DNA from: an uncultured Pseudomonadota bacterium
Lineage (GTDB): Bacteria > Oederibacteriota > Muellerivitia > Muellerivitales > Muellerivitaceae
Assembly (NCBI GenBank): GCA_963770835.1
Contig: CAVYRH010000003.1
Span: forward strand, 160,001-224,000
Direction of reading: 5' to 3'
Length of the DNA stretch: 64,000 bases
The position numbers and the translations under genes are program-made. Below the pieces are notes generated by a model that saw only the letters and a program-made list of their open reading frames with translations, was not told the origin of the DNA and did not search any database. Positions 40,715 through 59,148 of the stretch are shown here, piece by piece; the stretch's first letter is position 1, and each line of letters opens with the position of its first letter.

Positions 40715-40750
40715 ATCAATTATTAAAAAAGCTAAAAAGCAAAGGCCAAA

Positions 40751-42220
40751 TTGAAAACTTCAGAGTTGAGTCGAAAAAGCATTCCGGAGGGTTATTTCGG
40801 CATCGCGACTGAAGGTGCGTTCTGGAACGTTGGTTTAGCTGCGGCCAATAAGGTTGTTACCTTAGTAGGCCAAGTTATTTTGGCTTGGCTTCTAACACCG
40901 GCTGATATGGGTTTGGCTGGAATGGCTATTGCAATGACGGGGTTTACCTTGTTCGTATCCGCAGGGGGTATCAGTGACGTCTTAATTCAAAGAAATCGGT
41001 ATGAAAAGGAAGCTGGACAAGGTTTATGGATATCGGTTGGTCTTTGTTTGATCATGACGGTTTTAACATTACTCTTAGTTCCAATCGCTTGGATGTTAAA
41101 CCGAAGAGATATAACGAATTTATTACTCATTCTGGCCTTGTCTAATTTAATTTGGCTTCCCAACCCTATTTTGGAAGCGAAGCTGAAGAACTATTTGAAT
41201 TTCAAACAGCTTTCAATCGCATATTTTCTATCGGGTGTTTCCTATACTTTTTTTTCCATTTTCTTCGCCTGGCTTGGCTTCGGTCCCTTCGCATTGATTT
41301 GCCCGCGATTGATCCAAAATGCTGTCCAAATTGGTTACATGTTTTGGAAAGAGGGTGGAATACCTATAGAAAATCCCCGATGGGATTTGATCAAAAAACT
41401 TATAAAACCAACCTTGATGATGTCTCTTACGGGATTTTTTGCGGGACTTCAGACACAGGCTCCGGTTTTTTGTGTCGGGTTATTATTGAGCCCAACTTCA
41501 ACGGGATATTTCTCTTGGGGTTGGGCAATTGCGAGTCAGGCTGTATTCCTATTGGCTTCCAACTTGAGGCACGTTTTGTTGCCCGTTTTTAGCAAGTTGA
41601 AGGGAGATCAGGAAAGACAGGTATCGGCGGTTATCAAGTCGATAACTGCTATGACTGCTATTCTTGTGGTGGTTTGTGGAATTCAAGCAATTCTCGCTCA
41701 GCCTGTTTTGGACATATTTTTCCCGGCCAAATGGCAAGCCTCTGGGCCTGTAATCACTTGGATTAGTCTCGGCTTGTCAATGCAAGGTATATGGGTTGCA
41801 GTCACGGCATGGTTGAACGCGAATGGACAATACAAAGCACTACTTTGGAACAATATGGTTCCTACAGTGCTAGGGGCAGTATTTGCATTTTGCGGGGCCT
41901 ATTGGGGCGGAGTTAATGCAGGGGCGATGGGCACAGGTGTGGGGATTGCGCTGGGTTCCTTGTTTTCGCTTTTCAGTTTCCCATTGAGCGCTCTTAAGGG
42001 AAGTCTCCGCAATTTTTTTATCCCATTGTTAATTTCAGGAATCCTTTGGTTTGGTGGAAGTTTTGTTACCCAAGGAAACTTAATTTTGAGGGGATTAGCA
42101 ACTGTTATTTTTGTATCAGGAAGCGCAATTGCATGGTGGTATTGGGACGAAGGAACATTAAAGAAAATGGTTCCAAGATTGTTTTTTGCGAAATACCAAA
42201 AAGCCGGTGGTGAGAATTGA
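40751..42220 (+). CDS. wzx: Oligosaccharide flippase (Wzx/WzxC-like)
   Basis: ILAWLLTPADMG, multiple TM helices, LLPVFSKL. Confidence 0.85.
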   Translation: MKTSELSRKSIPEGYFGIATEGAFWNVGLAAANKVVTLVGQVILAWLLTPADMGLAGMAIAMTGFTLFVSAGGISDVLIQRNRYEKEAGQGLWISVGLCLIMTVLTLLLVPIAWMLNRRDITNLLLILALSNLIWLPNPILEAKLKNYLNFKQLSIAYFLSGVSYTFFSIFFAWLGFGPFALICPRLIQNAVQIGYMFWKEGGIPIENPRWDLIKKLIKPTLMMSLTGFFAGLQTQAPVFCVGLLLSPTSTGYFSWGWAIASQAVFLLASNLRHVLLPVFSKLKGDQERQVSAVIKSITAMTAILVVVCGIQAILAQPVLDIFFPAKWQASGPVITWISLGLSMQGIWVAVTAWLNANGQYKALLWNNMVPTVLGAVFAFCGAYWGGVNAGAMGTGVGIALGSLFSLFSFPLSALKGSLRNFFIPLLISGILWFGGSFVTQGNLILRGLATVIFVSGSAIAWWYWDEGTLKKMVPRLFFAKYQKAGGEN

Positions 42221-43380
42221 TTCGGTTAGGTGTTTTTACGACCCATCCAATCCAATATTACGTTCCATTATGGAGGTATCTTTCCAAGTACTCAAAATTA
42301 GACCTAACTGTCCATTATTTCAGCGATATAAGTGTGCGAGGTGGGATGGACAAAGGATTCAATCGCCCCGTGAAATGGGATATACCGCTTTTGGAAGGTT
42401 ATAAAAGTATTTTTGTTTCACGAGATGCCGACCTAGAAAAACCGTGGTCGATCCGAATTCCAAATGTTCGGAATTACCTGCGACAGTTCAATTACGACTG
42501 TATTCTTCTTCTAAGTTACAACCGTTATTTTGATTTCCAGATTGTCCGGGAAGCGCCAAAGCTGGGAATTAAGGTTTTGATGCGAGCTGAATTTTCTGAT
42601 ATCGGAAAAAGAAACCCCATAAAACAATTTGTACGCGATCGGTATTTAATGTGGCTATATCGGCGAATCGATGTATTTGCAGTTATCGGCGAGAACGCAA
42701 AGCAGCATTTGTTAAAACGGGGAGTTCCCCAGGAGAAAATGGTTTCTTCCCCTTATGCCGTTGATACAGACCTTTTTGAGAAACAGAAAAAGAGATTCAA
42801 AAGAGATAAATGTCGTAAAGCGTTGGGGCTTTCCAAGAACGACTTCGTTGTAATGTTTTCAGGCAAATTGATACCACGTAAGGAACCTCTCTTGTTCTTA
42901 AGAGCTCTCGGCAAACTCAATAATCATAAAAGCTTAAGGGTTATCATCTTAGGAGAAGGGCCATTGAAAATGCAGACAGTGAACATGGCGGAAGAATTGC
43001 TTCCTGGTAAAGTTTTGTTTCCTGGTTTTATAAATCAATCCGAGTTGGGACGATATTATGTGTCGTCAGATCTATTTGTTTTGCCTTCAAATCATGAAAC
43101 TTGGGGACTCGTGGTAAATGAGGCTATGCAATTTGGATTGCCCGTAGTCGTGAGTAAAAATACGGGTTGTCATTCTGACCTTGTCAATTTTGGTAAAACT
43201 GGTTTTGTTTTTTCTTCAGGAAATGAAGAGGCTTTGGCAAAACAGATAAAAAGATTTTTCTTGAATCACAAGCTCCAAGGAATAATTTCGCGAAATGTTA
43301 AAAAATTAATAAGAAATTACTCAGTTCAACATTCGGTGATTGGGATTTATGAAGCAATTAAATCTGTTAGTAAAATCTGA
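42217..43380 (+). CDS. Glycosyltransferase family 4
   Basis: FSGKLIPRK, DLFVLPS.HETWGLVVNEAM..GLPVV. Confidence 0.9.
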   Translation: MIRLGVFTTHPIQYYVPLWRYLSKYSKLDLTVHYFSDISVRGGMDKGFNRPVKWDIPLLEGYKSIFVSRDADLEKPWSIRIPNVRNYLRQFNYDCILLLSYNRYFDFQIVREAPKLGIKVLMRAEFSDIGKRNPIKQFVRDRYLMWLYRRIDVFAVIGENAKQHLLKRGVPQEKMVSSPYAVDTDLFEKQKKRFKRDKCRKALGLSKNDFVVMFSGKLIPRKEPLLFLRALGKLNNHKSLRVIILGEGPLKMQTVNMAEELLPGKVLFPGFINQSELGRYYVSSDLFVLPSNHETWGLVVNEAMQFGLPVVVSKNTGCHSDLVNFGKTGFVFSSGNEEALAKQIKRFFLNHKLQGIISRNVKKLIRNYSVQHSVIGIYEAIKSVSKI

Positions 43381-43418
43381 AGGAAATTTACTAAGATTAA
43401 AACAACTTGAGGCAGTAA

Positions 43419-44615
43419 TTGATCGCAGAACCTAGAAATTCTCACAATATTAATTTGGATTTTCTGCGGGGAACCGCAGCGTTGTTTGTGTTATTCGAAC
43501 ATCTTTCAAAGTTCCATTTAATCGCTAGTAATCAAATACAGAGCAAATCTTTTATAGCTTCCTTGTTTTATTTGTTCAGAAATTCGGGTGGAGACGCAGT
43601 TTTAGTATTTTTTGTTTTAAGTGGGTTTCTTGTAGGTGGATCTGTCGTAGAAACAGTATCGAAAAACGAATGGTCTTGGATTCATTATGCAATAAATAGA
43701 TTGTCGCGTCTTTGGACTGTACTAATACCAGCATTGTTCTTCACTTTTTTTTGGGATTCATTAGGTAAATTTTTCAATGGTTCTGGTTATACGGGAGCTT
43801 TTTTTAAAGACTTAGGAAGTGGCCCGACCCCGCTAAGCCTTGGAAATCTTAAGGCTTCCTCGTTTTTTGAAAATATTATTTTCCTTCAAACAATCAGTTG
43901 TCCCCCTTATGGATCAAATGGACCTCTTTGGAGTTTGGCCAACGAGTTTTGGTATTATTTACTTTTCCCACTTTTAATTCTAGTGATTCAAGTCAATGAA
44001 AAAACTAAAAATAAGATTTTGTATTCTATTATTTTCCTTTTATTGATATTTATTTTACCCAAGCGAATGTTGTTACTCGGTAGTGTTTGGTTGTTTGGAT
44101 TTGTAGCTTATTGGTGTTCAAAATCAAAAATAGCAGGCAGGGTAGTTACCAGTTTTACTTTTTTTATATTTTCGGCAATTTTGTTTATTCTTGTATTTTT
44201 TTTAACCAGTGATTTATTTAATTATCCATTTTACTTAGAAAAGATATTGAAATATGGCTCTTTGCCCTCGGACGGTCTTATAGGACTGACATTTGCAGGA
44301 ACTATTCCATTTTTAGCCACTCACGATCTTGAATTTAAAATATACAAAAATATTTCTAAATGGTTGTCTAATATTTCGTATTCTTTGTACCTGTTTCATT
44401 TTCCTTATTTGGCTTTTTTTTATTTTTGTTTTGTTTTACCACCCGCCCTACAGCCCTCGGTATTAAATCTTTTTTATTTTTGCCTAATGTATTTAGGGGC
44501 TATCGTGTATTCAGCGTTGATGTGGTATTTATTTGAAAGGCATACAAACAAAATCAAAAAATACGCTGAAAAAATTCTCTTGCGAAGACCTCAAGTCGCT
44601 TCGGGCAGAAATTAG
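43419..44615 (+). CDS. Acyltransferase family 3 (O-acyltransferase)
   Basis: LDFLRG.AA..V..EH, VFFVLSGFL, R..RL, WSLANEFWYY, ISYSLYLFHFP, FER. Confidence 0.88.
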   Translation: MIAEPRNSHNINLDFLRGTAALFVLFEHLSKFHLIASNQIQSKSFIASLFYLFRNSGGDAVLVFFVLSGFLVGGSVVETVSKNEWSWIHYAINRLSRLWTVLIPALFFTFFWDSLGKFFNGSGYTGAFFKDLGSGPTPLSLGNLKASSFFENIIFLQTISCPPYGSNGPLWSLANEFWYYLLFPLLILVIQVNEKTKNKILYSIIFLLLIFILPKRMLLLGSVWLFGFVAYWCSKSKIAGRVVTSFTFFIFSAILFILVFFLTSDLFNYPFYLEKILKYGSLPSDGLIGLTFAGTIPFLATHDLEFKIYKNISKWLSNISYSLYLFHFPYLAFFYFCFVLPPALQPSVLNLFYFCLMYLGAIVYSALMWYLFERHTNKIKKYAEKILLRRPQVASGRN

Positions 44616-44650
44616 AGTTATGAGAAGAAAAGAAAACAAAAATTCTATCG

Positions 44651-46126
44651 ATGAAAAATATGATTTTTAAAAATAAATTTCCAAGGACAAAAAACCGAAT
44701 TCGAAATGGTGATTTTGTAGAAATAAAAAATCGTAAAACTTCAAATAAAATATATCTACTTCTGTTAATAATATTTTTTGTTGGTTTTTTTATTCCAGAA
44801 ATGCAAAGTGTTTATTTCATCCTTGGATCCTGCATCAACTTAATTATCTTATTCATTTTAAGAAAGGAAATTTGCAGCCGAAATACGAATTATCTTCCGA
44901 TTTGGTTGATGATGCTTTTATTTGTTTTGGGGTATGTCCTTAAAACTTACCTTTGGTTTTTGCTTCCGCAAGAAATTGGTTCGCACATTTATGATTTTCC
45001 GGGAAATATCTATGCCACCGACACGGATTTAGTGGGGAGGTCTTATTTAATTTCATGCATTGGGTTTTTATTATTTTTTATCGTTTCAAAGATTTTAATA
45101 TTTAAAAAAAGCATCAAATTTACTGTGACCTCTTTTGAACCGAATGTTGGATTTATAAAGCTGGTTTTGAGTTTGATTTTGTTGATGTCAATCGTTACTG
45201 GTTATTTTCAGTATAAGTATCAAATCGGTATATTTGGCCATGATCCTGTAAAGTTGCCATTTAAACTTTCAGGCATTATTTATGAATCGAGAAATTTTCT
45301 GATTCCTTATTTACTTTTAGTATTAATTCATATTCTTCAAAGGCATAAAAATAAAAAATTTCTATATTTTTCAATTGCCCTTTTAATTGTTCATGCAATT
45401 TCTCAATCTTTTTTAATAACAAGTCGGGGAATAGTTTTGCTAATTTTGATACCTGTTTTCATGCTTTATATATTAAATGAAAACTTAAATAAAAAAGCCC
45501 TTTTAGCTTTTGGAATTATCCCAATAGTTTTTGTCATTGCAACTTATACAACTATTTCAGAAATTCGTTCTCTCCGAAGCACTAATGGCGCTTTTGATAT
45601 GACTTACTTTATAAACACATATCAAGAGTCTACACAAGAAGCTTTTGAATTAGGCTCTGAATTAGCTCTAGGAAGAGTAATTGGGATTAACGGTACAATT
45701 TGTTCCGTTAAAAACGTTGAACAACCTATCCCTCTTGGCGAATTGTTACGTATGTTTTTTGATCCCGAAAATTCCTTTTCCGACTATTACACGCATGAAA
45801 TATTGGGAATATTTTCAGAAAATCATCATTCTTCTCCCGGATTAATAGGTCAAATGTACGTAATAGGACTAATTCCGGGAGTGATTATTGGAATGATCAT
45901 TTGGGCCATATTATGGGTTATTTTATGGAATTATTATTTTACTAAAGAAAAATTTACAAGATTACCTCTTCTTTCGATGGTTGCATATTTCTTGTTTTTG
46001 TATTCTCACGAAGGGGACATTGGTTCGTTGTTTAAAATATTCATTTGGTTAATAATTTTTAATTTTGTTGGCGAATATTTGTTTAAAAAAAGTGTTTTGA
46101 TATCAAGAAAAAATGCTTCAACATGA
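44651..46126 (+). CDS. Putative Wzy polysaccharide polymerase
   Basis: Very AT-rich, >10 TM segments, SRG motif, position in a Wzx cluster. Confidence 0.6.
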   Translation: MKNMIFKNKFPRTKNRIRNGDFVEIKNRKTSNKIYLLLLIIFFVGFFIPEMQSVYFILGSCINLIILFILRKEICSRNTNYLPIWLMMLLFVLGYVLKTYLWFLLPQEIGSHIYDFPGNIYATDTDLVGRSYLISCIGFLLFFIVSKILIFKKSIKFTVTSFEPNVGFIKLVLSLILLMSIVTGYFQYKYQIGIFGHDPVKLPFKLSGIIYESRNFLIPYLLLVLIHILQRHKNKKFLYFSIALLIVHAISQSFLITSRGIVLLILIPVFMLYILNENLNKKALLAFGIIPIVFVIATYTTISEIRSLRSTNGAFDMTYFINTYQESTQEAFELGSELALGRVIGINGTICSVKNVEQPIPLGELLRMFFDPENSFSDYYTHEILGIFSENHHSSPGLIGQMYVIGLIPGVIIGMIIWAILWVILWNYYFTKEKFTRLPLLSMVAYFLFLYSHEGDIGSLFKIFIWLIIFNFVGEYLFKKSVLISRKNAST

Positions 46127-47259
46127 AAAAGGTAGAATTGGATGTGGAAAAGATCCTGATTTTTAGAATTGGATTTTTGGGTGATACACTTGTTTCGCTT
46201 CCAGCAATATCTGTTATTAGAGAAAAGTTTCCAGATGCAGGGTTATTTCTCTTAAGCCAACGGGTAATCAATGATAAGCGAGTGATTGGAAATGAAATAT
46301 TTGATGGTTCGGGCATTTTTGAAGATTACATTGGTTATCCGGTAGACCATCGTTTTATTGGGAAGTTTCTCCTACCTTTTTATTTCCTGAAACTCTCAAT
46401 TCAATTAAAAAAAAGTAATTTTGACAAGTTGGTTTATTTATCTCCTTCCCGACGCACTAAATATCAAATTGTGAGAGATCGGTTTTTCTTCAATTTGGTG
46501 GGAATTAAAGAATTCATTGGAATGGAGGGGTTTCAGCAAATTCTAAAGAAAGTTCCTGGTAAGTCTTTGCCAGAGGGTTGGCATGAGGCTGACCTGCTTC
46601 TAGACCGTCTTCGGGCTTCCGGATTTAATGTTCCCCCGCGCCTTTCGGGAAAGATGGATTTGAACCTGAATGAAAATGAAGAAGAAAGATTACAGAAGAT
46701 TCTGTCACAATTTCCTGGAACTAATGACCGTAGATGGTTGGGGATTGGCCCTGGAGGCAAAAAACAGGTTAGTATTTGGCCAAGTGAGCGCTATTTGGAA
46801 ACCGTCAGGAAATTGATTGAAAAATACAAAGTTTGGCCGGTCATCTTCGGTGGCGAGGATGATAGGGAAATAGGCGAGGAACTTGTGAAAGCCTGGGGCT
46901 GTGGTTATAACCTGGCCGGAGTTTTGCCGGTACGATTGTCGGCATTGGCTTTGCGTCGCTGCCAACTTTATCTAGGTAATGACACTGGGACGATTCATCT
47001 TGCTGCGTTGGCGAAGGTGCCATGTGTTGGAATTTATTCCTCGCATGAATATCCAGGCCGGTGGTACCCCTATGGTGTGGGGCATAAAGTTTTCAGGACT
47101 CCGATTGAATGCGAGGGGTGCGGCCTTTTTGAGTGCATTGAAAAGAAAAAAGAGTGCATCTTGTCCATCCGTGTTGAAGAGGTCTTAAAAGCCTGTGAAG
47201 TTGTCTTAGATCAAATCCAAAAGATTGAAAAAGCGGGCCCTTCGAAAAATGACGAATAA
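46123..47259 (+). CDS. Glycosyltransferase family 9 (heptosyltransferase-like)
   Basis: RIGFLGDTLV, WP.ERY, LYLGNDTGTIHLAA, Cys-rich end. Confidence 0.88.
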   Translation: MKKVELDVEKILIFRIGFLGDTLVSLPAISVIREKFPDAGLFLLSQRVINDKRVIGNEIFDGSGIFEDYIGYPVDHRFIGKFLLPFYFLKLSIQLKKSNFDKLVYLSPSRRTKYQIVRDRFFFNLVGIKEFIGMEGFQQILKKVPGKSLPEGWHEADLLLDRLRASGFNVPPRLSGKMDLNLNENEEERLQKILSQFPGTNDRRWLGIGPGGKKQVSIWPSERYLETVRKLIEKYKVWPVIFGGEDDREIGEELVKAWGCGYNLAGVLPVRLSALALRRCQLYLGNDTGTIHLAALAKVPCVGIYSSHEYPGRWYPYGVGHKVFRTPIECEGCGLFECIEKKKECILSIRVEEVLKACEVVLDQIQKIEKAGPSKNDE

Positions 47260-49483
47260 AAAAGTATCAAACAGATTTGAGAAGTTACTGAAGAATGCGC
47301 TCACAGGTGCCATCGCCCTTTTACAACCTCTTTATTTCTTGAGGCTATTTGTTCAAGCGGTATTAGATGCTTGTTTTTTTTCGTTTGTAAGAAGTTTTTA
47401 TAAACCGCGGAGGAGTCAAGGAGAAGCAATCAAGCATATTTTGGTAGTAAAGCCAGACCGTATTGGAGATGTGATCCTGGCTTTTCCTTTTTTGCGCGAA
47501 CTCAAAAAGACCTTCCCTCAGGCCAAAGTGACCCTAGTCGTTCGAGATCAAGTTGCGAACCTAGTGGAAAACTGCCCTTTTGTGGACGAAGTTCTCACTT
47601 ATACCAATGACCGTCATTGGGGCTTTCATTTTTTTCGGGGTATGAGAAAGGCCTTTACCTTTTCTAGAAAATATTTTTCAGGCCGGATTTACGATCTCGC
47701 AATTTTTCCCCGGTGGGGAATTGATTATTACTATGCGGGTCTCCTTGTGTTTTTGAGTGGGGCCCCCCGGCGAATTGGCTATTCCAATAAAGTGTTTATA
47801 GAAAAGGAAAGAGCCAATTTTGGGTTTGACCAGCTTTTTACAGAATGTTTATCGGGAGGAAAAGGGAAACATGAAATTGAATGCAATTTGGAAATTGTTC
47901 GTTATTTGGGCGGAAAACCAACAAGTGAAAACGTTGAATTTTGGTTTGGCGAAAATGATTTATTAAATACGGAAAAAATTATTGAACAAGGCGGGATGGA
48001 ACCAAAAGGAAAATTTATTGCCATCGGCATTGGGGCCAAACAAAAAAGGAAACAATGGCCTATTCAAAGATATTCCGAAATTATTAAATGGCTTCAAAAA
48101 GTATTTGACGCCGATGTTTTGATATTGGGTGGTCCTGAAGATCATGCTGATGGAGACCGATTAAATCAACAAAATGGGAAAAGAGTAATTAATCTGGCCG
48201 GGGCACTTAGCTTGCGTCAAACCGGAGCCGCTCTTTCGAAGTGCGATTTTTTTATTGGAAATGATTCCGGCCCCAAACACCTTGCGGCAATTTGCGGCTG
48301 TCCAACCATTGAAATTTCCTGGCATCCCCAAGAAGGTGATCCTGAAGAATCGAATTCGCCAGTGCGGTTTTCGGCTTGGAGTGCGAACACTGAAATTTTG
48401 CGCCCTAAGCGTCAAGGCCCTTTTTGTAAGAGAAAATGTATTGCCTATTTTCCGCATTGTATTTGCGGAATTGGGGTTGGAGAAGTCAAAAAAGCCGTGC
48501 TTGAATTGGCTAAAATCAGGGGCATTCAACACAAAGATAATCCGGAGGAGTTAAAAGAACCAATTCCAAATTTTTTTATTATTGGGGCGCCCCGCTCGGG
48601 CACGACTTCCTTGAGCACCTACCTGAGGAGTCACCCCAACGTATTTCTAAGCGCGTTGAAAGAACCGTCTTTTTTTGACTTTGATCTTGCACCCAAAGCC
48701 AAGATAAGCCGGGACGATTATTTGGGATTATTCATGAAGGCAGATCCGAAAGTTAATTTGGCCATCGGGGAAGCCTCACCCACTTATTTATTCTCAGAGT
48801 GCGCGGTGTCTGAGATTTTGAAGTTCAACCCTAAGGCTAAATTCATAGCCATATTGCGCAACCCGGTGGACCTTATTCAATCCATCCATAGTCATGAGGT
48901 CTTCTGGGGGGAAGAAAATATTAGGGATTTTGAGAAAGCCTGGCGGGCCGAAGCCGAGCGCAGGGAAGGAAAAAACATCCCCTATTCCTGCCGTGAGCCC
49001 AAATGGCTGATGTATTCGCAATGGGGGAAGTTCGGAGACCAAATTGAGAAACTCTATTCTCATGCTACGAAAGACAAAATTAAAATCATCATTTTCGATG
49101 AGTTTGTTGCCAATCCCAAAGCGACCTATGAGGGACTTTTGACTTTCCTAGGAGTGCCATCGGACGGGCGTAATGAGTTCCCCAAGGTCAATGAAGGCCG
49201 GAATATACGATGGATATGGCCTCAGCAGATTTATTCGTTGTTCGTTTCTATGGCCTGGATTCTCCGATCCAAATTCGGGCTGGCCATGAAAAGTTATGGC
49301 ATATCCACGAAAATATTGTCTCTCAACGTCGATCCATTGAATAAAGGTTTTGTTTCCAAGGATTTTCGGGAGGAACTCAACCGGTTTTTTTACGATGATG
49401 TGATGAAGCTCTCGAAGCTTTTGGGGCGCGACCTGTCTTATTGGGTTAATGCCGAACAACCGAAGCCAAGCCTTAAGCATTAA
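47249..49483 (+). CDS. GT9 glycosyltransferase fused to a C-terminal sulfotransferase
   Basis: DRIGDVIL and FIGNDSGPKHLAA, then PNFFIIGAPRSGTTSL (5'-PSB), KEP.FF, GEASPTY, ILRNPV. Confidence 0.85.
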   Translation: MTNKKVSNRFEKLLKNALTGAIALLQPLYFLRLFVQAVLDACFFSFVRSFYKPRRSQGEAIKHILVVKPDRIGDVILAFPFLRELKKTFPQAKVTLVVRDQVANLVENCPFVDEVLTYTNDRHWGFHFFRGMRKAFTFSRKYFSGRIYDLAIFPRWGIDYYYAGLLVFLSGAPRRIGYSNKVFIEKERANFGFDQLFTECLSGGKGKHEIECNLEIVRYLGGKPTSENVEFWFGENDLLNTEKIIEQGGMEPKGKFIAIGIGAKQKRKQWPIQRYSEIIKWLQKVFDADVLILGGPEDHADGDRLNQQNGKRVINLAGALSLRQTGAALSKCDFFIGNDSGPKHLAAICGCPTIEISWHPQEGDPEESNSPVRFSAWSANTEILRPKRQGPFCKRKCIAYFPHCICGIGVGEVKKAVLELAKIRGIQHKDNPEELKEPIPNFFIIGAPRSGTTSLSTYLRSHPNVFLSALKEPSFFDFDLAPKAKISRDDYLGLFMKADPKVNLAIGEASPTYLFSECAVSEILKFNPKAKFIAILRNPVDLIQSIHSHEVFWGEENIRDFEKAWRAEAERREGKNIPYSCREPKWLMYSQWGKFGDQIEKLYSHATKDKIKIIIFDEFVANPKATYEGLLTFLGVPSDGRNEFPKVNEGRNIRWIWPQQIYSLFVSMAWILRSKFGLAMKSYGISTKILSLNVDPLNKGFVSKDFREELNRFFYDDVMKLSKLLGRDLSYWVNAEQPKPSLKH

Positions 49484-49662
49484 TCCCGCGTCGTCCTAAA
49501 CTTTCGTAACAAAACACAGGCATTTTTTGTATTCAGCATGGTAATCCCGGCGTCCTCCCGGCTTAATAAACCCTAGTTAAACTTACTATTTAAGTACGCA
49601 TTTGAACGTCGGAAAATTACAATGCTGCGGATTGTTAAACCTCCGGGGGACCAAAATATCCA

Positions 49663-51210
49663 TTGAACCCAAAATTGCTGGTCCTCTATCAATATTACTC
49701 ACCCGATGATGTTGTCAGTGCGGTTCATTTCACTGATTTGTGTGAGGGACTTTCCAAGAGTGGTTTTGCCGAACCCAATCTTGGTGCCTCCGCAAGCTCC
49801 GGCACCTCGGTTCGGCACACACAAAGCCCTCTCCTCGGCTTGAGGGTCTCGGAGAAGTGGGAAGTCGAGGTCTGGCCCAGCAACCGGGCCTGCCACGATC
49901 TAAAAGCCACCTATACCACCAAGCCGGAAACGGTGAACGGAGTGACCATCCGCCGGGTTTGGAGGCCGCCTTTCTCCCAGCATTCCTTCCTGGGCCGGAT
50001 CCTCAATTCCATCTGGATGCTGAAACGCTGGTGGTGGCGGCTTCTTTTATCACCCTCCATCCAACCGGACGTGATCCTGACGGGCACCGACCCGCTGTTT
50101 ACCATAATCCTCATCCCTTTCCTGAAAATGATCCGCCCCAAGGCCAAGATCGTCCACTGGTGCTTCGACCTCTATCCCGAGGCCGCCATCGCCGACGGCA
50201 TGCTGAAGGAAAACGGCCCCGTGGTGAAGCTCGCGAGGCCTTTCCTGGAAAAAGGCTACGCGAAATGCGATTTGGTGGCCGACCTGGGGCCTTGCATGAG
50301 GGAAAAGTTAAAAAAATATGGAATTGAAACACCTAAGGCTGAAGCACCCTCACCCCAACCCTCTCCCCTTAAGGGAGAGGGGGGAGCCGATTCAACCGAA
50401 TACCAAAAGGCCTCCCCGCTGCATCTTCTCGGTGAAAAACGAGTTGTGACCCTGACTCCCTGGGCCTTGGAGGAACCCTCTGCTCCTCTGCCAATCGACC
50501 TGGTAGAAAGGGAAGCCCTTTTTGGGGCCGAGCCCATGGGTGATGCCTCCGCAAGCTCCGGCATCTCGGCTCGGCCCACCTCACCCATCGGGCTTACGCC
50601 CGAGGGCGACAAAAATCGTCGGAGCTCGCCCCGAGGCTCGAGGGCCTCGGGGCAGGGGAAATTTCAATTAGCCCTGCTTTATTCCGGCAACCTGGGCCGG
50701 GCCCACGACTTTTACCTCAATTTGAAGCTGGCCCAACGGATGCGCGATTCCGCGGGGTTCACCTACAGCGTGCGGGGCAGCCGGGTGGACGCCTTGAAGC
50801 TGGCGGTGAACCCGGAATATACCAATATCCGTTTCGCGCCCTTCGCCCCGCCGGAGCGCCTGGCCGCGCGGCTGGCCGCGCCCGACGTGCACGTGGTGAG
50901 CCTTCGCCCCGAGTGGACGGGCACGGTGGTGCCCTCCAAATTCTTCGGGGCCCTGGCCGTGGGCCGGCCCGTGCTTTTCGAGGGCGACGAGCATTCCTCC
51001 ATCGCCCTCTGGATCAAGGAATATGGGGTGGGCTGGGTTTTGGGCGTCAGGAACATGGAGGATGTCGCGGAGGAACTGGAGAAGTTCTCCAAGGACGCCA
51101 AGAAGAAGGCGGAGATGTTCAAGCGGTGCCATCAAACCTACCAGGCCCATTTCTCAAAGGCCACGATTCTTTCCAAATGGGAGGCTGAATTGAGGGCATT
51201 GCTGCCCTGA
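49663..51210 (+). CDS. Glycosyltransferase family 4 (WbuB/WcaI-like) with three in-frame repeat insertions
   Basis: QYYSPD, DLYPE, LYSGNLGRAH, VPSKFFGALAVGRPV. Confidence 0.85.
   Translation: MNPKLLVLYQYYSPDDVVSAVHFTDLCEGLSKSGFAEPNLGASASSGTSVRHTQSPLLGLRVSEKWEVEVWPSNRACHDLKATYTTKPETVNGVTIRRVWRPPFSQHSFLGRILNSIWMLKRWWWRLLLSPSIQPDVILTGTDPLFTIILIPFLKMIRPKAKIVHWCFDLYPEAAIADGMLKENGPVVKLARPFLEKGYAKCDLVADLGPCMREKLKKYGIETPKAEAPSPQPSPLKGEGGADSTEYQKASPLHLLGEKRVVTLTPWALEEPSAPLPIDLVEREALFGAEPMGDASASSGISARPTSPIGLTPEGDKNRRSSPRGSRASGQGKFQLALLYSGNLGRAHDFYLNLKLAQRMRDSAGFTYSVRGSRVDALKLAVNPEYTNIRFAPFAPPERLAARLAAPDVHVVSLRPEWTGTVVPSKFFGALAVGRPVLFEGDEHSSIALWIKEYGVGWVLGVRNMEDVAEELEKFSKDAKKKAEMFKRCHQTYQAHFSKATILSKWEAELRALLP
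49768..49853. repeat. In-frame palindromic insertion 1 in the GT4
   Basis: gccgaacc..ggtgcc-tccgcaagctcc-ggcacc-tc-ggttcggc, then cctcggcttgagggtctcgg. Confidence 0.8.
50345..50382. repeat. In-frame REP-like unit in the GT4 (PSPQPSPLKGEG)
   Basis: caccctcaccccaaccctctccccttaagggagaggg. Confidence 0.8.
50527..50653. repeat. In-frame palindromic insertion 3 in the GT4
   Basis: gccgagcc..gatgcc-tccgcaagctcc-ggcatc-tc-ggctcggc plus hairpins tcgggc-ttac-gcccga and gccccgaggc..gcctcggggc. Confidence 0.8.
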
Positions 51211-51291
51211 TCCAGCTTGTGTCCATAGTGGCCTTCGGGCCTGGCACACCCAAACCGCGTGTCTCGCCTTGTGGGCTCGACACAGGGGTAC

Positions 51292-51360
51292 CAAGCCCAT
51301 TTTTCAAGAGCCGCTGTGATCTCCCATTGGGATGAAGAACTTCGAGCCCTCTTGTCTTAA
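51292..51360 (+). pseudogene. Alternative GT4 C-terminus, copy 2
   Basis: QAHFSRAAVISHWDEELRALLS* versus QAHFSKATILSKWEAELRALLP* at 51142-51210. Confidence 0.85.
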
Positions 51361-51527
51361 TAACACGCGGGGACTAGCTGCGGCTCCCGGGCTTGGTACA
51401 CCCAAGGCTCGCGCCTCGGCTTGCATTCGTCCCTGCTGGGACGATTGCGACCAATTCTTGCACCTCGCCTTGTGGGCTCGGTGCAGGACGGGCTACTACC
51501 GCTCTTCGAGGCTACGGCGCAGGGGAC

Positions 51528-51596
51528 CAGGCTCATTTCTCCAAAAAAATCGTCCTCGACGCCTGGGACCGGGAACTGCGATCCCTCCTGGCTTAA
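51528..51596 (+). pseudogene. Alternative GT4 C-terminus, copy 3
   Basis: QAHFSKKIVLDAWDRELRSLLA*, same 69-nt length. Confidence 0.85.
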
Positions 51597-51601
51597 TCCA
51601 A

Positions 51602-51633
51602 TTGTTCCCAAAATGGTAACATTAGGGTAGAAT
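51602..51633 (+). promoter_or_regulatory. higBA promoter with imperfect palindromic operator
   Basis: TGTTCCC-aaaat-GGTAACA followed by TAGAAT. Confidence 0.55.
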
Positions 51634-51639
51634 CCAACC

Positions 51640-51939
51640 ATGAGGGTCATCAGCCTGAGGGGCTTAAAAAAATTCTGGGAAAGTCCTGAGGGCAAGGAAT
51701 CGGAAAGCCCTTTGCGGGTATGGATCAAGGAAGCCCGGGGGGCCCATTGGAAAGGGCCGCACGACGTTAAGGCCCAATATCGAACAGCTAGCATCTTAAA
51801 AAGTGGCCGGGTTGTATTTAATGTTGGTGGGAATAAATTCAGGTTGGTGACGGTTGTGTTTTACGACGTTCAAATCGTGTTTATCCGATTTATAGGAACG
51901 CACACCCAATACGATCAAATAGACGCGCAGGAGGTTTGA
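51640..51939 (+). CDS. higB: HigB-family mRNase toxin
   Basis: MRVIS, W..P.DVK, RVVFNVGGNKFRL, IRFIGTH.QYD. Confidence 0.92.
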   Translation: MRVISLRGLKKFWESPEGKESESPLRVWIKEARGAHWKGPHDVKAQYRTASILKSGRVVFNVGGNKFRLVTVVFYDVQIVFIRFIGTHTQYDQIDAQEV

Positions 51940-51942
51940 GAA

Positions 51943-52314
51943 ATGAAGCCCAAAGTCCTTAAAACCGAAAAAGATTACGACAGGGCGCTTCGATATATCG
52001 AGGGCCTCATGAAGATTCCCAAAAGCTCCTCCCGAAACGAAGAGTTGGATTTATGGGCGACCCTTGTGGAGGCTTACGAAAAAACACATTACCCGATTGA
52101 CGATCCTGATCCTATTGAAGCTATCAAGTTTCGGATGGACCAAATGGGGTTAAAACCCGCCGATTTAGCCAAACTTTTGGGGGGGAGGAGCCGGGTTTCC
52201 GAGGTGTTGAACCGAAAGCGTCCCCTTTCCGTTTCCATGATGCGGAGTCTTTACAAAGACCTTCACGTTCCGGCTGAATCGCTCTTGGCCGAACCTTCGC
52301 CCAAGTATCGTTAA
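51943..52314 (+). CDS. higA: HigA-family HTH antitoxin
   Basis: LVEAYEK.HYPI..PDPIEAIKFRMDQ.GL, SRVSEVLNRKRPLS. Confidence 0.92.
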   Translation: MKPKVLKTEKDYDRALRYIEGLMKIPKSSSRNEELDLWATLVEAYEKTHYPIDDPDPIEAIKFRMDQMGLKPADLAKLLGGRSRVSEVLNRKRPLSVSMMRSLYKDLHVPAESLLAEPSPKYR

Positions 52315-52353
52315 TCCAACGTTAGATCGTACTAGTTCAGGGAAGGGACTGGA

Positions 52354-53337
52354 ATGAAAAAAATCCTCGTCAACGGCGCCGGGGGGTTCATCGGCGGGCA
52401 CCTGGTGAAGCGGCTCAAGGCCGAGGGGAATTGGGTGCGGGGCGCCGACCTGAAACAGCACGAATACTTCAAGCTTCCCGCCGACGAGTTCCTCCAGGGC
52501 GACTTGCGGGACCAGGCTTTCGCCCAAAAGGCCGTGGGGGGCATGGACGAGGTGTACCAGCTGGCCGCCGACATGGGCGGGGCGGGTTACATCTTCACCG
52601 GCGAGCACGACGCCGACGTCATGCACAACTCGGCCACCATCAACCTGAATACCCTGCATTTCGGCCGCCTGGCCGGCGTGAAAAAAATCTTATATTCCTC
52701 CTCGGCCTGCATCTACCCGGCCCACAACCAGGAGGACCCGGACAACCCCATCTGCTCCGAGGACTCGGCCTACCCCGCCAACCCGGACAGCGAATACGGC
52801 TGGGAGAAGCTGTTTTCCGAGCGGCTTTACTTCTCTTATATGAGGAACTACGGGCTGGAGGTGCATGTGGCCCGGTTCCACAACATTTTCGGGCCCGAGG
52901 GCACCTGGGACGGGGGCAAGGAAAAGGCCCCGGCGGCCATCTGCCGCAAGGTGGCGCAGGCCCCGGACGGCGGGGAGATCGAGATCTGGGGGGACGGCTT
53001 GCAAACCCGGTCTTTCCTTTACATCGACGAGTGCCTGGAAGGCGTGCGGCGGATGATGGAATCCAAGGAGCCCGGCCCCCTCAACATCGGCTCCGAGGAA
53101 ATGGTGACCATCAACGGCTTAGCCCAAATGGCCATGGAAATCGCCGGAAAGAAGCTTTCCATTAAGCATATCCCCGGCCCCCTGGGCGTGCGGGGCCGCA
53201 ATTCGGACAACCGCCTGATCCAAAAGAAACTGGGTTGGGCGCCCAGCCGGCCCTTACGGGAAGGCATGGAAAAGACCTACCGGTGGATTGAAAAGCAGGT
53301 CCAGGCCAAAACCACCGCATCACCCAAGGGAAAGTAA
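52354..53337 (+). CDS. NAD-dependent epimerase, GDP-mannose 3,5-epimerase-like
   Basis: GAGGFIG, LAADMGGAGYI, SSACIYP, YGWEK, RFHNIFGP.GTW.GGKEKAPAA.CRK, GVRGRNSDN. Confidence 0.88.
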   Translation: MKKILVNGAGGFIGGHLVKRLKAEGNWVRGADLKQHEYFKLPADEFLQGDLRDQAFAQKAVGGMDEVYQLAADMGGAGYIFTGEHDADVMHNSATINLNTLHFGRLAGVKKILYSSSACIYPAHNQEDPDNPICSEDSAYPANPDSEYGWEKLFSERLYFSYMRNYGLEVHVARFHNIFGPEGTWDGGKEKAPAAICRKVAQAPDGGEIEIWGDGLQTRSFLYIDECLEGVRRMMESKEPGPLNIGSEEMVTINGLAQMAMEIAGKKLSIKHIPGPLGVRGRNSDNRLIQKKLGWAPSRPLREGMEKTYRWIEKQVQAKTTASPKGK

Positions 53338-53340
53338 GAC

Positions 53341-53952
53341 TTGGCCGCTTCCGCCCGTACGGGGTTGAAATTCACCCATAAGTTGTTTCTGGCCGCCGCC
53401 CTATTCCTCTTTTGCCTGGGTCTGGCCCAGGCCCTTTATTACGCTTCGGTTTTCGCGAACCTGCCCACCGTCATCCCCCCGGCGGACATGATCCTCATTT
53501 ACAGCGGGCCCGATGACCGCACCGAAATCCTGAGAGATTGGGGGGATAAGCCTTCCCCCCTCTTCCTGCTCTCGGGCCAGGATTACACCGCCTGGAAACT
53601 GCAGAGGGAATTGAAGTCGGGAAGGCCGATGCTGGTGGAGGATTGGGCCCGGACCACAGACCAGAACGCCCGTTATTGCGCGCCGATTGTCCTGAAAAAA
53701 GGGGTTAAACAAGTGGTGTTGGCCCTGCCCTGGTACCACCTGCCCCGGGCTATGTTTTTGACCCGCGTATATTTAAGGGGTACGGGCGTGACGGTGGCTC
53801 CTTATGCCACGGTGGCAGTGCCCAGCGGATGGTACCTTCGCCCGATCTTCTGGATCGAGATGGTCAAGTTTTGGGGCAGCCTGATGCGGGTGGGGCTTTC
53901 GCACTTCGGCGTCCAGGATTTCCCCCCTCCCACCGGCGGCTTTTGGGGATAA
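53341..53952 (+). CDS. YdcF/DUF218 (ElyC/SanA-like) protein
   Basis: N-terminal TM, LLSG, E..ARTT.QNA, YHLPRA, E..K. Confidence 0.75.
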   Translation: MAASARTGLKFTHKLFLAAALFLFCLGLAQALYYASVFANLPTVIPPADMILIYSGPDDRTEILRDWGDKPSPLFLLSGQDYTAWKLQRELKSGRPMLVEDWARTTDQNARYCAPIVLKKGVKQVVLALPWYHLPRAMFLTRVYLRGTGVTVAPYATVAVPSGWYLRPIFWIEMVKFWGSLMRVGLSHFGVQDFPPPTGGFWG

Positions 53953-53976
53953 GGACCGGGGTTGCGGGCTATGCTG

Positions 53977-54135
53977 GGTCGTGACTCAGTTTGAGTTGGA
54001 TAACCTTAAGGCACCCCTCACCCTACCCTCTCCCCCAAGGGGCGAGGGTTTTTTAGTGGTATTTCCCCCTCTACCTTGAGGGGAGAGGGCGGGGTGAGGG
54101 TGGAGTAACATTTTTTTTCAAACTGATGCACTACC
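53977..54135. mobile_element. MITE-like element, copy 1
   Basis: TIRs ggtcgtgactcagtttga / tcaaactgatgcactacc enclosing a REP-like doublet; near-identical to 60179-60337; no TSD seen. Confidence 0.75.
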
Positions 54136-54200
54136 GATACTTGGAAAACATTGTCTGGTTTTTGAAGCTCCTTTATATAATGAGGTTCCAAGAGGAAAAC

Positions 54201-54392
54201 ATGGCCCAACCTAAAGACGAAGCCCTCCAAATCATCCAAAACCTTCCCGAAGACTCCACTTTCGGGGATATCCAATACCACCTTTACGTCCGTGAAAAGG
54301 TGGAAAAAGGCCTGAAGGATTTTGAGGCGGGACGCACCCTGACCCAAGCCCAAGTCGAAGAAAAAATGGCCAAATGGCTCAACCCGCAATGA
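54201..54392 (+). CDS. Small antitoxin-like protein of a type usually paired with RelE/ParE; no toxin follows
   Basis: LPED.TF.DIQYHLYVREKVEKGL.D.EAGR..T..QV. Confidence 0.65.
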   Translation: MAQPKDEALQIIQNLPEDSTFGDIQYHLYVREKVEKGLKDFEAGRTLTQAQVEEKMAKWLNPQ

Positions 54393-54697
54393 TGAGGAAA
54401 CTGTTCTTAGCCTTGGCATTATGGCTGGCCGCCGGGGGGGCGCAGGCGGCCTATTACCACAGTTTTTTGGGGATGGACGACTATTACTGGTTCGACTTGA
54501 CCGGGAGCTGGGTGGTGAGCGACGTCACGACGAAGGTTCTCCCCGAGGACCTCAAACCCCTCGGCCCTTGCGCGGTCTTCGCGGGGGACGCGATTTATGA
54601 GGGCCTCAAGAATCCGACCCCCAACGACATCGGCCTGGACCTGGCCCTGGACGCGGCGGGATGCGGCTTATCCTACATCATCAACATCAAATGGTGA
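54389..54697 (+). CDS. Small secreted hypothetical protein
   Basis: Signal peptide ending AQA; overlaps the upstream stop. Confidence 0.55.
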   Translation: MMRKLFLALALWLAAGGAQAAYYHSFLGMDDYYWFDLTGSWVVSDVTTKVLPEDLKPLGPCAVFAGDAIYEGLKNPTPNDIGLDLALDAAGCGLSYIINIKW

Positions 54698-54847
54698 GAG
54701 GCGTCTCCCCCCGCCTTCGGGGGCCCGGTAACCCCCAGTTTGCCCCCTTCTTTCTGTGACATCCGTCATATTCGTTTTTGGATTACGGATGTAAATTCTA
54801 ATTAGTAGATAACAAACAAAACCGAAGCGGTGACAGCGAGTGAACGC

Positions 54848-54881
54848 GCTCTCCATGAAAATCAGGGAGGGCTTTTTTTTT
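54848..54881 (+). terminator. Terminator-like hairpin ~50 nt upstream of the 54931 start
   Basis: gctctcc-N11-ggagggc followed by T9. Confidence 0.5.
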
Positions 54882-54930
54882 GAGCTAGGCAGGTTAACTG
54901 TTTTACCGAACGCCGCCTAAGGATAAGCCA

Positions 54931-57900
54931 ATGAAAAAGGGAAAAATTTTCTTTTTTGCGGGTCTCCGCTTCACCTTCCTCATTTCCTTATTGGCGGCTT
55001 CCCAGGCCTTTGCCACGACCCGTTACGTGGGCCCGGCCGCCAGCGGGGTCACCTACACCACGCTGACCACGGCCATCGCGGCCTGCGCCACCGGCGACAT
55101 CGTCGTCCTCCTGCAGAACACCAATGAGAACGTCACCTTTCCCGCCAACTATGGAAAAAAAATAACGGTCGAATCGGACGCCACCGGCAGCGTGACCCTG
55201 ACCGCCGCCGGACGCACGAGGACGATCAATTATTCCGGGGCCGGCGTGAATCCCACGATCGATTTCGGGAACGTCAATACCAACGGTTACGGGATCACCT
55301 TCATCAACCTCATCATCAACAACCAGACCACGGGGGCATCGGGGGGTGTTCCGGTCAATTTGGACGCCAACAACCCCAATACCACGGGTTCGGTGGTCTT
55401 CCTCAACTGCGAATTCCGCCGGGACACGGCGACCGCGGGAAACGGCATCCTCGTCAGCCAGACGGGCGGGCAGCCGGGCGCGGCTTACGCCTTCCAATTC
55501 ATCCGGTGCGACTTCAGCGGCAACGCCGCGACCGGCAACACCCTGGCCGGGCTTTACCTGGGCAGCAACGGCAACCAGCCCAACGGGCATCCGTCCTGGT
55601 ACGTGGAGAATTCGGTGTTCCACGACATGACGGCCGCGAATTCCGCCGGCATCAGTTGGGGCTATTCCACCGCCAACACCGGGCCCGACGCATCCTTCAA
55701 CAACGACACCTTCTTCAACTGCGTGTGGGGCATTTCCTCCAAGGGCCCGATGAGCGTGACCAACTGCGTTTTCGCCGCCAATAGCACGGGGGACTTCACC
55801 TTCAACGCCACGGGCAACGCCATGAAGAACTCCCTATTCTCCAACGACACCTTCTACAACCGCCCCACCCAGACCCTGACCCCGGTCTTCACGGCCTGCA
55901 TCACCGCCACGCCCACCTTCTACCCGACGGAGTTCGTGAACAGCACGGTGGGGTCCGAGAACCTCAACCTGGCCCCCGGGGCCCGGTCGGTGGATACGGG
56001 CAAGACCATCGCCCCGGTGCCCGCCAGCGGGATCTTCGCCGCCGGCGCGATCGACCACGACAGCACCGCCCGGCCGCAGGGGCCCGCCTGGGACATCGGC
56101 GCCTATGAGTACACCCCACCCACCCCGACGCCTTCCAGCACCCCGAGCGGCACGCCGACCTTCACCATCACCAACACCCCCACGCCCCTGGTTACCAGCA
56201 CACCTACGGACAGCCCCACCTCGACGGCCAGCTCGACGCCCACCTCAACCACGACCGACAGCCCGACCCCAACGGCTTCCTCAACGCCCACCTCCAGTTA
56301 CACCGCCTGTACCGACGGCAGCGGCAACACCTGCACTTTCACCACCACGCCCATGCCCACCAACACCCCGACCGATTCCCCCACTGACAGCGCCACCAAT
56401 ACCCCCACCGTCACCCTGACTTCGACGCCCACTTCTACCCCGACCAACTCGACGACCTCCACGGCCTCCTCCACCCCCAGCTCCACGCCCACCGTGACCA
56501 ACACCCCCAGCGGGCCCCCGGTGACCATCCTGGGGACGGGCAACACCTATACCACCCTGCAACTGGCGGTGGCGGCGGTTTCCGGCGGGCAGACCATCCA
56601 GGTCAACGGCCCCACCACGGAGACGGTGGCCTTCGGGGCCGGGGGAAAATCCTTCACGGTGCAGACCAACGGGTTCCCCCAGACGGTCAACCTCAACGCC
56701 AACATCACCGAGGACACCCAGGGCGGCACCATCAGTTTCACCAACATCGCCTTCAACCACCTGGTGGCCGTCACCACCCTGTTCACCAACAGCTGGGGCG
56801 CCGCGCCCGTTTCCTTCATCAACTGCCAGTTCCTATCCACCCAGACCGACGATGTGTTGCCGGTCTCGGGTTACGGCTACAGCCTGATCCGCAGCCAATT
56901 GGTGGGCAATACCAACTCCACGGCGGGCATCAACCTGAAGACCGGCAACAATTCCGTGACCCTGGTGGATTCGGTCATCCAGGATGTGGGCAACGGCGCC
57001 GGGGTGACGGAAAGCGGGGGAGGGAACAACACCAAGAACCTCTATTATTTCGACGATTTCGTCAACAACCAGGCCGGGATGAGCATCCCGACGGCCAACG
57101 ATTCCTGCGCCGTCACGGACTGTATCTTCATGTCCACGGGCGCCACCGACGTGGCCTTCACCAGCGGCAACGGACCCATCAACTTCGACTATTGCACTTT
57201 TAAGACCCCGCCCACCGCCACGGGCATCCTTACCCTGGGGACCCACAACAAGACCTCGACCGCCGCGGCCGAGTTTATGAACGCCGCCGTGGGCAGCGAA
57301 AATTTACAATTGGTTTGTTCCGCCCTTTCCCGCCTGGCGGGGGTGGCGGTGGCCGGCATCAGCACCGACAACCTGGGGACGGCCTTGAATGTACCCCCGG
57401 ACATCGGCGCTTTTGCCTACACGGGCCCTAATTGCACCCCGACTAATTCGTCCACCTCCACCCCGACGGGCACCCCGACGAATACGGCCACCAACACGCC
57501 TTCCTTTACCCCCACTTCCACAACGACGGATACCCCCACCATTACCCTCACTTTCACCGTAACGGATACCCCCACGGAAACGCCGACGTTGACGCCGACC
57601 AACACGGCTACGTCAACGGCCAGCGACACACCGACTTCCACCGCCAGCGATACCCCGACCCCCACGGCGACCTTCACAATTACGGATACGCCCACCGTCA
57701 CCCTCACGTTCACGGCTACCCTGACGCCCACCGATACGCCGACCTCGACGGCCACCTCGACCCCCGACCCTACCGACACATCTACTTCGACGGCTACGTC
57801 CACCGCTTCCAACACTTCCACGCCTGATCCCACGGACACGCCAACGGATTCAGCGACACCGTCACTGACCCCGACGGCCACGCCTTCGTTGACCTCCACG

Positions 57901-59118
57901 AATACGGCTACAGAAACGCCGACGGATTCGATGACGCTTAGCCCGACAGACTCCCCGACTCCAACAGCCTCATTGACGCCGACTGGGACGGCGTCCCCCT
58001 CCGCTTCGTCCACGCCTTCGCCGACACCCCAGGATACGGCGACGGATACATTGACGGCTACGCCGTCCAGTACTCCCCCGGGCACCGCCACACCGACAGC
58101 CACGAACACACCCGTTAACACCACGACCGATACCACGACATTAACCGCGACGGATACGCCGACAGGTACGCCAACGGCGACGCCCACGCTCACCGCTATG
58201 GATACGCCTTCGCTAACGTCCACGAATACGGCTACGGATACGCCGACGGATTCGATGACGCCTAGCCCGACGGATTCCCCGACCCCAACAGCCTCATTTA
58301 CACCGACTGGGACAGCGTCCCCCACCGTTTCGACTACGCCTTCGTCGACACCCTCGGATACCGGCACTCAAACAGCCACCAATACCGCCATGAATACCTC
58401 CGTTAACACCACGACCAATACTGCGACGGATACGCCAACCGATACGCCAACGGCAACGCCCACGCTCACCCCAATGGCAACGCCTTCGCTGACGTCCACG
58501 AATACCGCAACTTTCACCACCACGAATACGCCGACGGACTCGGCCACGGCGACCGCTACTTTGTCGCAGACGGCTACCGCCTCAGCCACGCCATCCTTGA
58601 CACCCACGAATACGGCCACGGATTCAACGACGCCTACGGTGTCCTTTACCGCTTCAGCGACACCTTCGTCGACGGCCACCCCGTCGCCTACCGCCACCTT
58701 GACCTTCTCGGCCACTGCCACGCCTTCCAATACCCCTACCGCCACCCCAACTTCCACCACGACCTCAACCGCCACAGGGACGCCCGCCGCCAGCTCGACT
58801 TCCACGCCCACCGGCACCCCCATCGCGGCCGTGGCCGTCGCCACGCCCCTGCTTTACCCCAATCCGGTCAATGGGCCGGGACCGGCCTTCATCCAGGTGG
58901 GTTTTGGGAGCAACGAAGCTTGGGTTGAAATGAAGGTTTTCACGACGGGGTTCCGGAAGGTGAAGGACAAAACACTGGAGAATGTCGCCGCAGGGATCAA
59001 CAACCTGCCGCTGGACTTGAACGATGACTGGGGGAAGCCGCTAGCCAACGGTCTTTACTACGTGGTTCTTACCACGCCGGAAAATAAATACGTCCTGAAG
59101 CTTTTAGTCCTGCGGTAG
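54931..59118 (+). CDS. Giant secreted protein: two beta-helix (pectin lyase fold-like) modules, Thr/Pro linkers, C-terminal FlgD-Ig/T9SS-CTD-like domain
   Basis: Signal peptide; both modules start YTTL..A and end DIGA(Y/F); C-terminus LYPNP...LANGLYYVV...KLLVLR. Confidence 0.8.
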
Positions 59119-59148
59119 GTCCTGATAAGCCATCACCCCACCGCCCTG

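Follow-up and report, generated by a model that had tools for sequence, protein, structure and literature searches.

The question raised by this locus is why one glycosyltransferase gene should be followed by spare copies of its own end, each standing behind the same kind of structured element. In the window (the whole 64,000-nucleotide stretch of DNA that was analysed) a GT4-like glycosyltransferase gene of 515 aa occupies 49663-51210 of the plus strand, on which the tails, arms and elements of this locus are also placed; its matches to PF13579, PF13524 and PF13439 all fall below the curated cut-offs. The earlier note described three alternative C-termini of exactly 69 nt (22 codons plus stop) at 51142-51210, 51292-51360 and 51528-51596, and both the positions and the translations proved exact. 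Pairwise the three tails are 43/69, 39/69 and 43/69 identical (57-62%), and all keep an open frame and conserved F, W and EL residues. The shared start of homology that had been proposed is indeed a fixed site, but it lies three bases earlier, at a TAC codon (51139, 51289), and copy 3 has no T (CAGGGG/ACC, 51526; slashes mark junctions). Copy 1, the tail in use now, consists of TAC, 22 codons and stop (51139-51210); copy 2, a displaced tail, spans 51289-51360 and reads CAGGGG/TACCAA at its junction; copy 3, also displaced and presumably the oldest, spans 51526-51596 and reads CAGGGG/ACCAGG, the T of TAC being absent.

As originally reported, GGGCYTGGYACACCCAA is present in both spacers, and both end CAGGGG(T)ACCA. 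In unit 1, hairpin 1 has the first ten bases of copy 1 as its first arm, and the arm at 51237-51246 is an inverted copy (9/10) of these bases, 51139-51148, matching the downstream copy at 8/10. Element core 1 (51243-51288) runs from GGYAC through a bulged base and a closing stem of 3 bp to hairpin 2 (51259-51283), and stops with CAGGGG at the junction. The arm of unit 2 (51389-51398) is an inverted copy of 51289-51298 at 10/10, as compared to 7/10 for the downstream copy. Core 2 (51395-51525) is in two parts, 51395-51423 and about 51508-51525, lying around a nested, related two-hairpin element at 51424-51508 whose ends are uncertain by one base; the two hairpins once taken to covary are thus not positional homologues, since the loop of the second spacer's element is interrupted by another. 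The segment after copy 3 (51597-51620) recurs nearly unchanged behind the last orphan tail of a relative (G021). The higB-higA-like toxin-antitoxin pair (51640-52314) does follow the last copy and lies outside the units, with higB above the PF09907 cut-off and the HTH gene below that of PF01381; relatives carry several such pairs behind the GT4 gene. A further element copy, a covariance model match, sits within the GT4 reading frame at 49814-49861, and several in-frame repeat insertions were seen in the same frame (49768-49820, 50350-50386 and 50527-50579).

Misassembly of the three-tail array was considered and ruled out by contigs bridging each junction without differences. These contigs, from three studies (four of the 14 listed runs), cover 50914-51361, 51224-51515 and 51321-52373 with zero differences; every tail junction is bridged, the full array is crossed by no single contig, and one of the runs is possibly the source sample itself. 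No joint within 51139-51596 and no empty allele appears in these contigs, which at their low depth says nothing either way. Of 31 family genomes searched, 18 have a tail match (one weak), and the same C-terminal junction is found in five, G000 (the genome of this window), G002, G021, G024 and G027, representing four genera, and also in two contigs from metagenomes, of which one likewise carries three tails. Most GT4 genes of the family have a single tail.

The spacer motif belongs to a dispersed family of elements. There are 45 copies in G000 by nhmmer and 40 by covariance model, which also finds the element in 29 of 30 other family genomes and in none of 68 other genomes of the phylum; it gave no hit in the 20 non-family GT4 loci or the five viral matches tested. 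The core consists of GGYAC and a bulged base, then a closing stem of 3 bp, an asymmetric loop, a stem of 5 bp, a 2x2 loop, a stem of 3 bp and a loop of 5 nt, and ends in CAGGGG or variants. Hairpin 2 and the closing stem co-vary across 23 aligned copies (0.671 vs 0.198 shuffled, 0/500, a control inflated by relatedness; slid controls at most 0.155). A scanner recovered 166 copies from G000 and from loci that represent part of the more than 600 family matches; in 131 of them the copy forms a short first hairpin by itself, with GGYAC at the end of the second arm. Ordinary copies mostly measure 66-73 nt from first arm to end, tandem arrays begin at the first arm, and elements are placed in frame inside genes, GT4 included. 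A search of Rfam at the locus returned one chance-level match and nothing else, 60 element loci held no tRNA genes that might have served as targets, and a viral scan gave five matches, none fitting the element model; two of five pattern matches in a metagenome scan were real.

Non-Watson-Crick pairs on the written strand are rich in A.C (34 vs 7 G.T, with 74 ties, among 115 dereplicated copies; p 2.5e-5), and this excess of A.C over G.T means that folding is better on the opposite strand. This signature says that the hairpin probably works on one strand and points to the opposite strand as the folding one. Copies within genes occur in both orientations, which argues against an mRNA-level role, and we infer that the element acts at the level of DNA. 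Orientation relative to replication, judged by local GC skew, is 17 vs 18 copies, the skew being too weak for strand calls. Flank-flank pairing is slightly above that of shuffled sequences (-6.13 vs -5.62 ± 0.13 kcal/mol, 125 copies), so a subset of copies sits in hairpin loops; the second spacer of the window is such a loop-insertion case, and its uninterrupted form exists in G002 (L114).

At GT4 the first hairpin is built differently. The C-terminal units have no good short first hairpin (5-6 of 10); instead, the TAC site of the gene itself supplies the first arm of stem 1, the last 23 codons form its loop, and the second arm repeats the tail's first ten bases in inverted orientation. Arms of this NNCCARGC type number ten among the 166 copies, and seven of these are at GT4 units. 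In the six units for which both neighbouring tails are available, few, related and non-independent as they are, the arm matches the upstream tail at 53/60 positions, the maximum of all pairings (6/720 permutations), and the downstream tail at 42/60 (504/720 permutations). Where the two tails differ, the arm follows the upstream one 13 times, the downstream one twice and neither once. This test left out L096 (upstream copy cut off), L114 (another repeat between it and the tail) and the non-independent second copies in G021, L093 and G027. Duplex energies favour the upstream end in five of six units, and folding of the whole unit agrees clearly in three of six; it is weak in G021, opposite in G024, where the arm lies on the downstream copy, and strand-dependent in L093, where it lies on the downstream copy on the opposite strand. 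Taken together, these pairings show the arm to track the upstream, apparently newer, gene end and not the displaced one.

The earlier note had argued from two breaks at one site for a site-specific process rather than random recombination. A site-directed process tied to the element is supported: the junction recurs in four genera and with at least four hairpin variants, and the inverted copy of the break site, located before 'acacccaa', co-varies with the upstream gene end. We lean, if only slightly, towards the view that a unit of gene end, arm and hairpin moves as folded single-stranded DNA, inserts at a fixed site and supplies a new end while the old end is pushed downstream. In such a scheme, hairpin 1 and the closing stem would stack end to end and bring the left and right junctions together, where a predicted trans-acting nuclease or recombinase would cut and rejoin, releasing a closed single-stranded unit. 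The arm might then locate a new allele through base pairing with the conserved TAC-CAR-GC site there, which would take the place of the unit's own copy on the arm and become joined. The order in the window would be copy 3 as the oldest, then unit 2, then unit 1. The tails would ride along as passengers and have no switching role; a unit that carries a tail leaves its gene intact, so selection would tolerate it.

Mirror units that duplicate the gene start were found in three of the 31 genomes (G002, G006 and G027). Here orphan N-termini are joined to the element at a single fixed site after GAY GAY GTN; next come this site in inverted orientation and a new start, and the arms follow each genome's own codons. 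G002 has five start copies, two of which adjoin a different repeat. In G027 (C18 98560-99010) we observed a collapsed GT4 gene in which three start copies with elements are present and the last is fused directly to the final 36 codons; the 36-aa 'orphan' of this genome was accordingly rejected as a tail copy. Three GT4 ends with longer homology are also seen at L053 (G019:C22 11285-15224), with an AAA-ATPase or AbiE-like cargo between them (labels assigned by eye); these longer 'orphans', three copies with toxin-antitoxin and ATPase cargo, have other breakpoints and no model match at the junction examined, and were set aside.

The layout is far from general among the element's copies. The expectation that the hairpin would neighbour duplicated gene ends genome-wide was disappointed: such an end adjoins only four of the 45 copies in G000, two at GT4, one at a gene that we take to be comM-like and a fourth at a small membrane ORF; in both non-GT4 cases it is the nested-type element, in reverse orientation. 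Gene-end replacement is so a specialised use of a common element and not the rule. Among ordinary copies, arm and downstream flank do not match (mean 3.0/10, 156 copies), and arm guiding is therefore not a general rule either; nor is there a fixed target tetranucleotide, NRCC following the junction in 21 of 156 copies (control offsets 4-17). An lpd-like gene in G000 has a different repeat with the same own-arm layout (11/11, 0/100 controls), and 19 other non-GT4 orphan ends gave no convincing arm (best 10/11, 2/100 controls) in an 11-mer test that is blunt, as unit 1 of the window itself scores only 9/11 (14/100 controls). Several further duplications were noted in passing. At 632-694 and about 1116-1178 of the window there is a diverged duplicate of the end of a presumably carA-like gene, fused behind a short fragment resembling what we assume to be the carB start and with a small membrane ORF between; it has no arm and no element. 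The end of an HTH ORF is duplicated around a toxin-antitoxin-like pair (about 37365-37471 and 38425-38532), with element copies nearby (37085-37131 and 38194-38241) and none at the junction. In two same-genus genomes (L105 1400-1640; L187) an endonuclease III-like gene has upstream of it an 84-nt direct repeat with the element inside.

The working GT4 gene of the same-genus genome G002 ends with copy 2 (69/72 nt identical), although its gene body is 71% identical to that of the window. Between G000 and G002, tail, spacer and element of unit 2 are identical at 85/89, 42/44 and 16/18 positions (143/151 overall), as compared to 50/71 for the tail after the junction and 69-88% for other shared genes, and identity drops within 7 nt of the junction. 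The simplest reading would be a recent transfer of unit 2, bounded near the junction; the left boundary is not placeable, as copy 2 has no gene body. Overall, the sequence comparison shows the anatomy, the fixed junctions, the co-variation of arm and upstream end, an apparent bias towards folding of the opposite strand, and a unit with sharp bounds that two diverged genomes share.

Alternatively, and we consider this possible but rather unlikely, each site might have received a single old insertion, by any route, which homologous recombination then copied and handed from lineage to lineage, the gene body and orphan tail acting as homology arms; the arm would match the working end through template-switch correction of quasi-palindromes or through decay of the orphan. 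Homologous recombination has also been at work on these arrays: G027 has a 35-nt identical tract within otherwise different tails, L093 a chimeric middle copy and G021 a 1,322-bp duplication, mosaics and longer duplications that look like products of homologous recombination and are what such a history would leave. The same applies to the first 17 nt shared by the G024 orphan and copy 2 of the window, to the single first hairpin type of all three N-terminal units, and to a Ser-to-Pro change that the orphan tails of G002 and G021 share and that is absent from all working tails listed, from which it follows that element and orphan travelled together at least once. Several GT4 cores are mutual nearest or near-nearest neighbours, for instance those of G021 and L093, but the ranks are mixed overall: the nearest relative of core 1 is a non-GT4 copy (44/46 vs 40/46), and the closest GT4 core to that of G027 is at rank 29. 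What this history leaves unexplained are the compensatory changes in hairpin 2, the strand bias and the drop in G000-G002 identity within a few bases of the junction; moreover, the arm follows both synonymous and non-synonymous variants of the farther copy, not the nearer one. We also note that G027 carries a 1.3-kb block duplicated 10 kb apart (C18 83542-84864 and 94213-95535), which adjoins a transposase fragment, starts at an element arm and holds an orphan tail and a ParB-like gene.

A third scenario, which appears improbable to us, invokes one-sided events in which a donor recombines by homology in the gene body and its hairpin end is joined to the TAC site of the recipient, with no closed intermediate. 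These might take the form of homology-facilitated illegitimate recombination, or of an insertion that duplicates a long stretch of its target; both processes are already described, as far as the available text of PMC3240628 and PMC2853133 goes. Such events would yield a new end, an element and an old end with a sharp right junction, and G000 does have many orphan gene ends without an element; yet under them the arm would not be expected to pair specially with the site of the donor itself, and the mirror N-terminal units have their fixed junction on the other side. Orphan gene ends with no element at the junction, in two or three copies over several kb, were observed in G000 at C4:724159, C26:608639, C10:209036, C11:91098 and C8:153703, and this genome has an unusual load of gene-end duplications. 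The remaining suggestion, a programmed shufflon- or cassette-like switch among three glycosyltransferase C-termini, is very unlikely: the open frames and conserved F, W and EL of the tails, which speak for it, would be expected of recently displaced working ends anyway, the tails stand in direct order with no inversion and no invertase or recombinase beside them, the orphans show marks of decay (the lost T, Ser-to-Pro), the low-depth contigs hold no joint or empty allele, and most family GT4 genes are one-tailed.

If units do move as folded single strands, once present they might also be duplicated and exchanged by homologous recombination between tails, and an enzyme acting in trans would be required. 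The searches made here found no such enzyme. There is no integrase gene in or beside the GT4 units, no recombinase or invertase among the ORFs examined in 40000-60000 of the window, and no match to the integron integrase TIGR02249 above cut-off in any of the 31 family genomes. Among 30 Y1 loci, part of the Y1 matches, none has the gene flanked by the element on both sides and three have a copy within about 1.5 kb; G021, 99% complete and with 46 element copies, has no Y1 match. In G000, none of 12 tyrosine recombinases (mostly beside tRNA-like sequence, with one triplet and one Xer-like), 11 Y1, 11 IS110, 18 reverse transcriptases and one large serine recombinase is element-flanked, and ResT, TrwC and Rep_trans have no match. 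The commonest neighbour of the element is a ParB-like family (26 loci, partly clustered via the element's own peptide) that hosts in-frame copies. These proteins (L132, L144, L179, G000 C10:211374 and others) form an expanded family with a membrane segment and a variable C-terminal domain, and their genes are frequent hosts of in-frame element arrays in both orientations. Other mobile genes were seen along the way. Y1 proteins of about 320 aa (G000 C3:276333 and C26:665993; G027:C18 82540-82984 and repeats) lie in units with perfect 16-bp terminal inverted repeats that are multi-copy across the family and have deleted derivatives; eleven identical reverse-transcriptase genes (G000 C3:2516, C3:106850, C4:580639 and eight more) lie in a roughly 2-kb unit, the ends of which resemble short inverted repeats common to an IS110-like element; and at L268 (G002:C26 7667, 8783) element copies lie directly before and within a triplet of tyrosine recombinase genes.

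The literature searched, with subscription papers covered in part, holds no account of this layout. In integrons the inverse core is complementary to the cassette's own 5' start, the attC core being GTTRRRY and the inverse core RYYYAAC. The GT4 units would work most like such a cassette, yet fall outside the class, with no IntI above cut-off in 31 genomes and a different core. They share the stacking of units at one site and in one orientation, as well as the one-strand imperfect hairpin and possibly its bulged base and unpaired spacer, with the cassettes and attC sites outlined in the accessible part of PMC2727003. Further likenesses are an arm complementary to the unit's own first bases, at GT4 and in 131 of the 166 copies, a G/T at the junction and AC in the arm. 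Unlike attC, the GT4 core is G/TRCC with the arm GGYAC, not G/TTRRRY; there is no IntI above cut-off, Rfam match or attI array; copies are dispersed and lie within genes; and as cargo there is a replacement terminus for the gene that is targeted. The unpaired positions of the hairpin comprise a single bulged base, an asymmetric 7/1 loop and a 2x2 loop, spaced otherwise than in attC. Prophage e14 and phage 21 at icd likewise insert inside a gene, restore it with a new end and displace the old one. The GT4 units resemble them in bringing a replacement terminus that leaves the gene intact, but measure 150-240 nt, have no integrase, act at both gene ends and carry an inverted copy of the site.

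The element itself resembles REP, BIME and REPIN sequences served by TnpA-REP (RAYT), which in the sections available of PMC3333891 and PMC6006769 are short, lineage-restricted, multi-copy mismatched palindromes that form arrays, insert in frame in genes and have no enzyme of their own; excision as a single-strand circle is the model proposed there for REP/BIME. It differs in having no GT[AG]G at the hairpin foot (alignment consensus) and no element-flanked Y1 gene, and a target-complementary arm and gene-end replacement are absent from those same sections (PMC3333891; PMC6006769). With IS200/IS605, and IS608 in particular, it has in common a strand-specific hairpin substrate and DNA-DNA target pairing by hairpin-foot bases, as far as these are treated in the available text of PMC5934647, which also reports that engineered IS608 attained a specificity of 12/17 nt through extended pairing; the 10-nt arm would be a natural means to the same effect. 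Unlike these elements, the unit has no transposase and ordinary copies have no conserved target tetranucleotide; by replication strand the copies divide 17 vs 18, at a skew too weak for strand calls. Insertion with long target duplication likewise flanks an insert that lacks mobility genes with long direct repeats; in the accessible part of PMC2853133 the duplications are variable in length, unlike the GT4 case with its fixed break, copies 57-62% identical and a structured element at the junction. In contrast to a shufflon, all GT4 tails are in direct order, and no linked invertase occurs among the ORFs examined in 40000-60000.

The mobile-element reading thus draws support from the anatomy of ordinary copies, the arm statistics, duplex energies, co-variation, strand bias, unit 2 in G000 and G002, the core ranks, the mirror units and the lpd layout, and has against it that no enzyme was found, that the arm has no flank match in ordinary copies, the shared Ser-to-Pro change, the folding of G024, L093 and G021, the six units being related and the four of 45. 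More tentatively, and with some doubt on our own part, we speculate that these are mini-cassettes without a protein, guided by DNA, in which a folded single strand with a 10-nt arm tailored to its target inserts near either gene end and repairs the gene with the terminus it carries. If so, they would represent an undescribed class, either a natural counterpart of the engineered extended-pairing IS608 or an integron-like system without the integron.

The layout is real, recurrent and structurally specific, and is probably a variant of small hairpin mobile elements. The locus yields rules that can be tested, namely the strand that folds, the positions of the junctions and the bases that must pair. 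If the arm does select the site, this would be a natural programmable insertion system of less than 250 nt that enters genes without breaking them, and it would predict an enzyme acting on folded single-stranded DNA. It would also explain a common scar, the spare, diverged gene ends that lie behind hairpins, and the exchange of gene-terminus alleles between lineages that are 20-30% apart.
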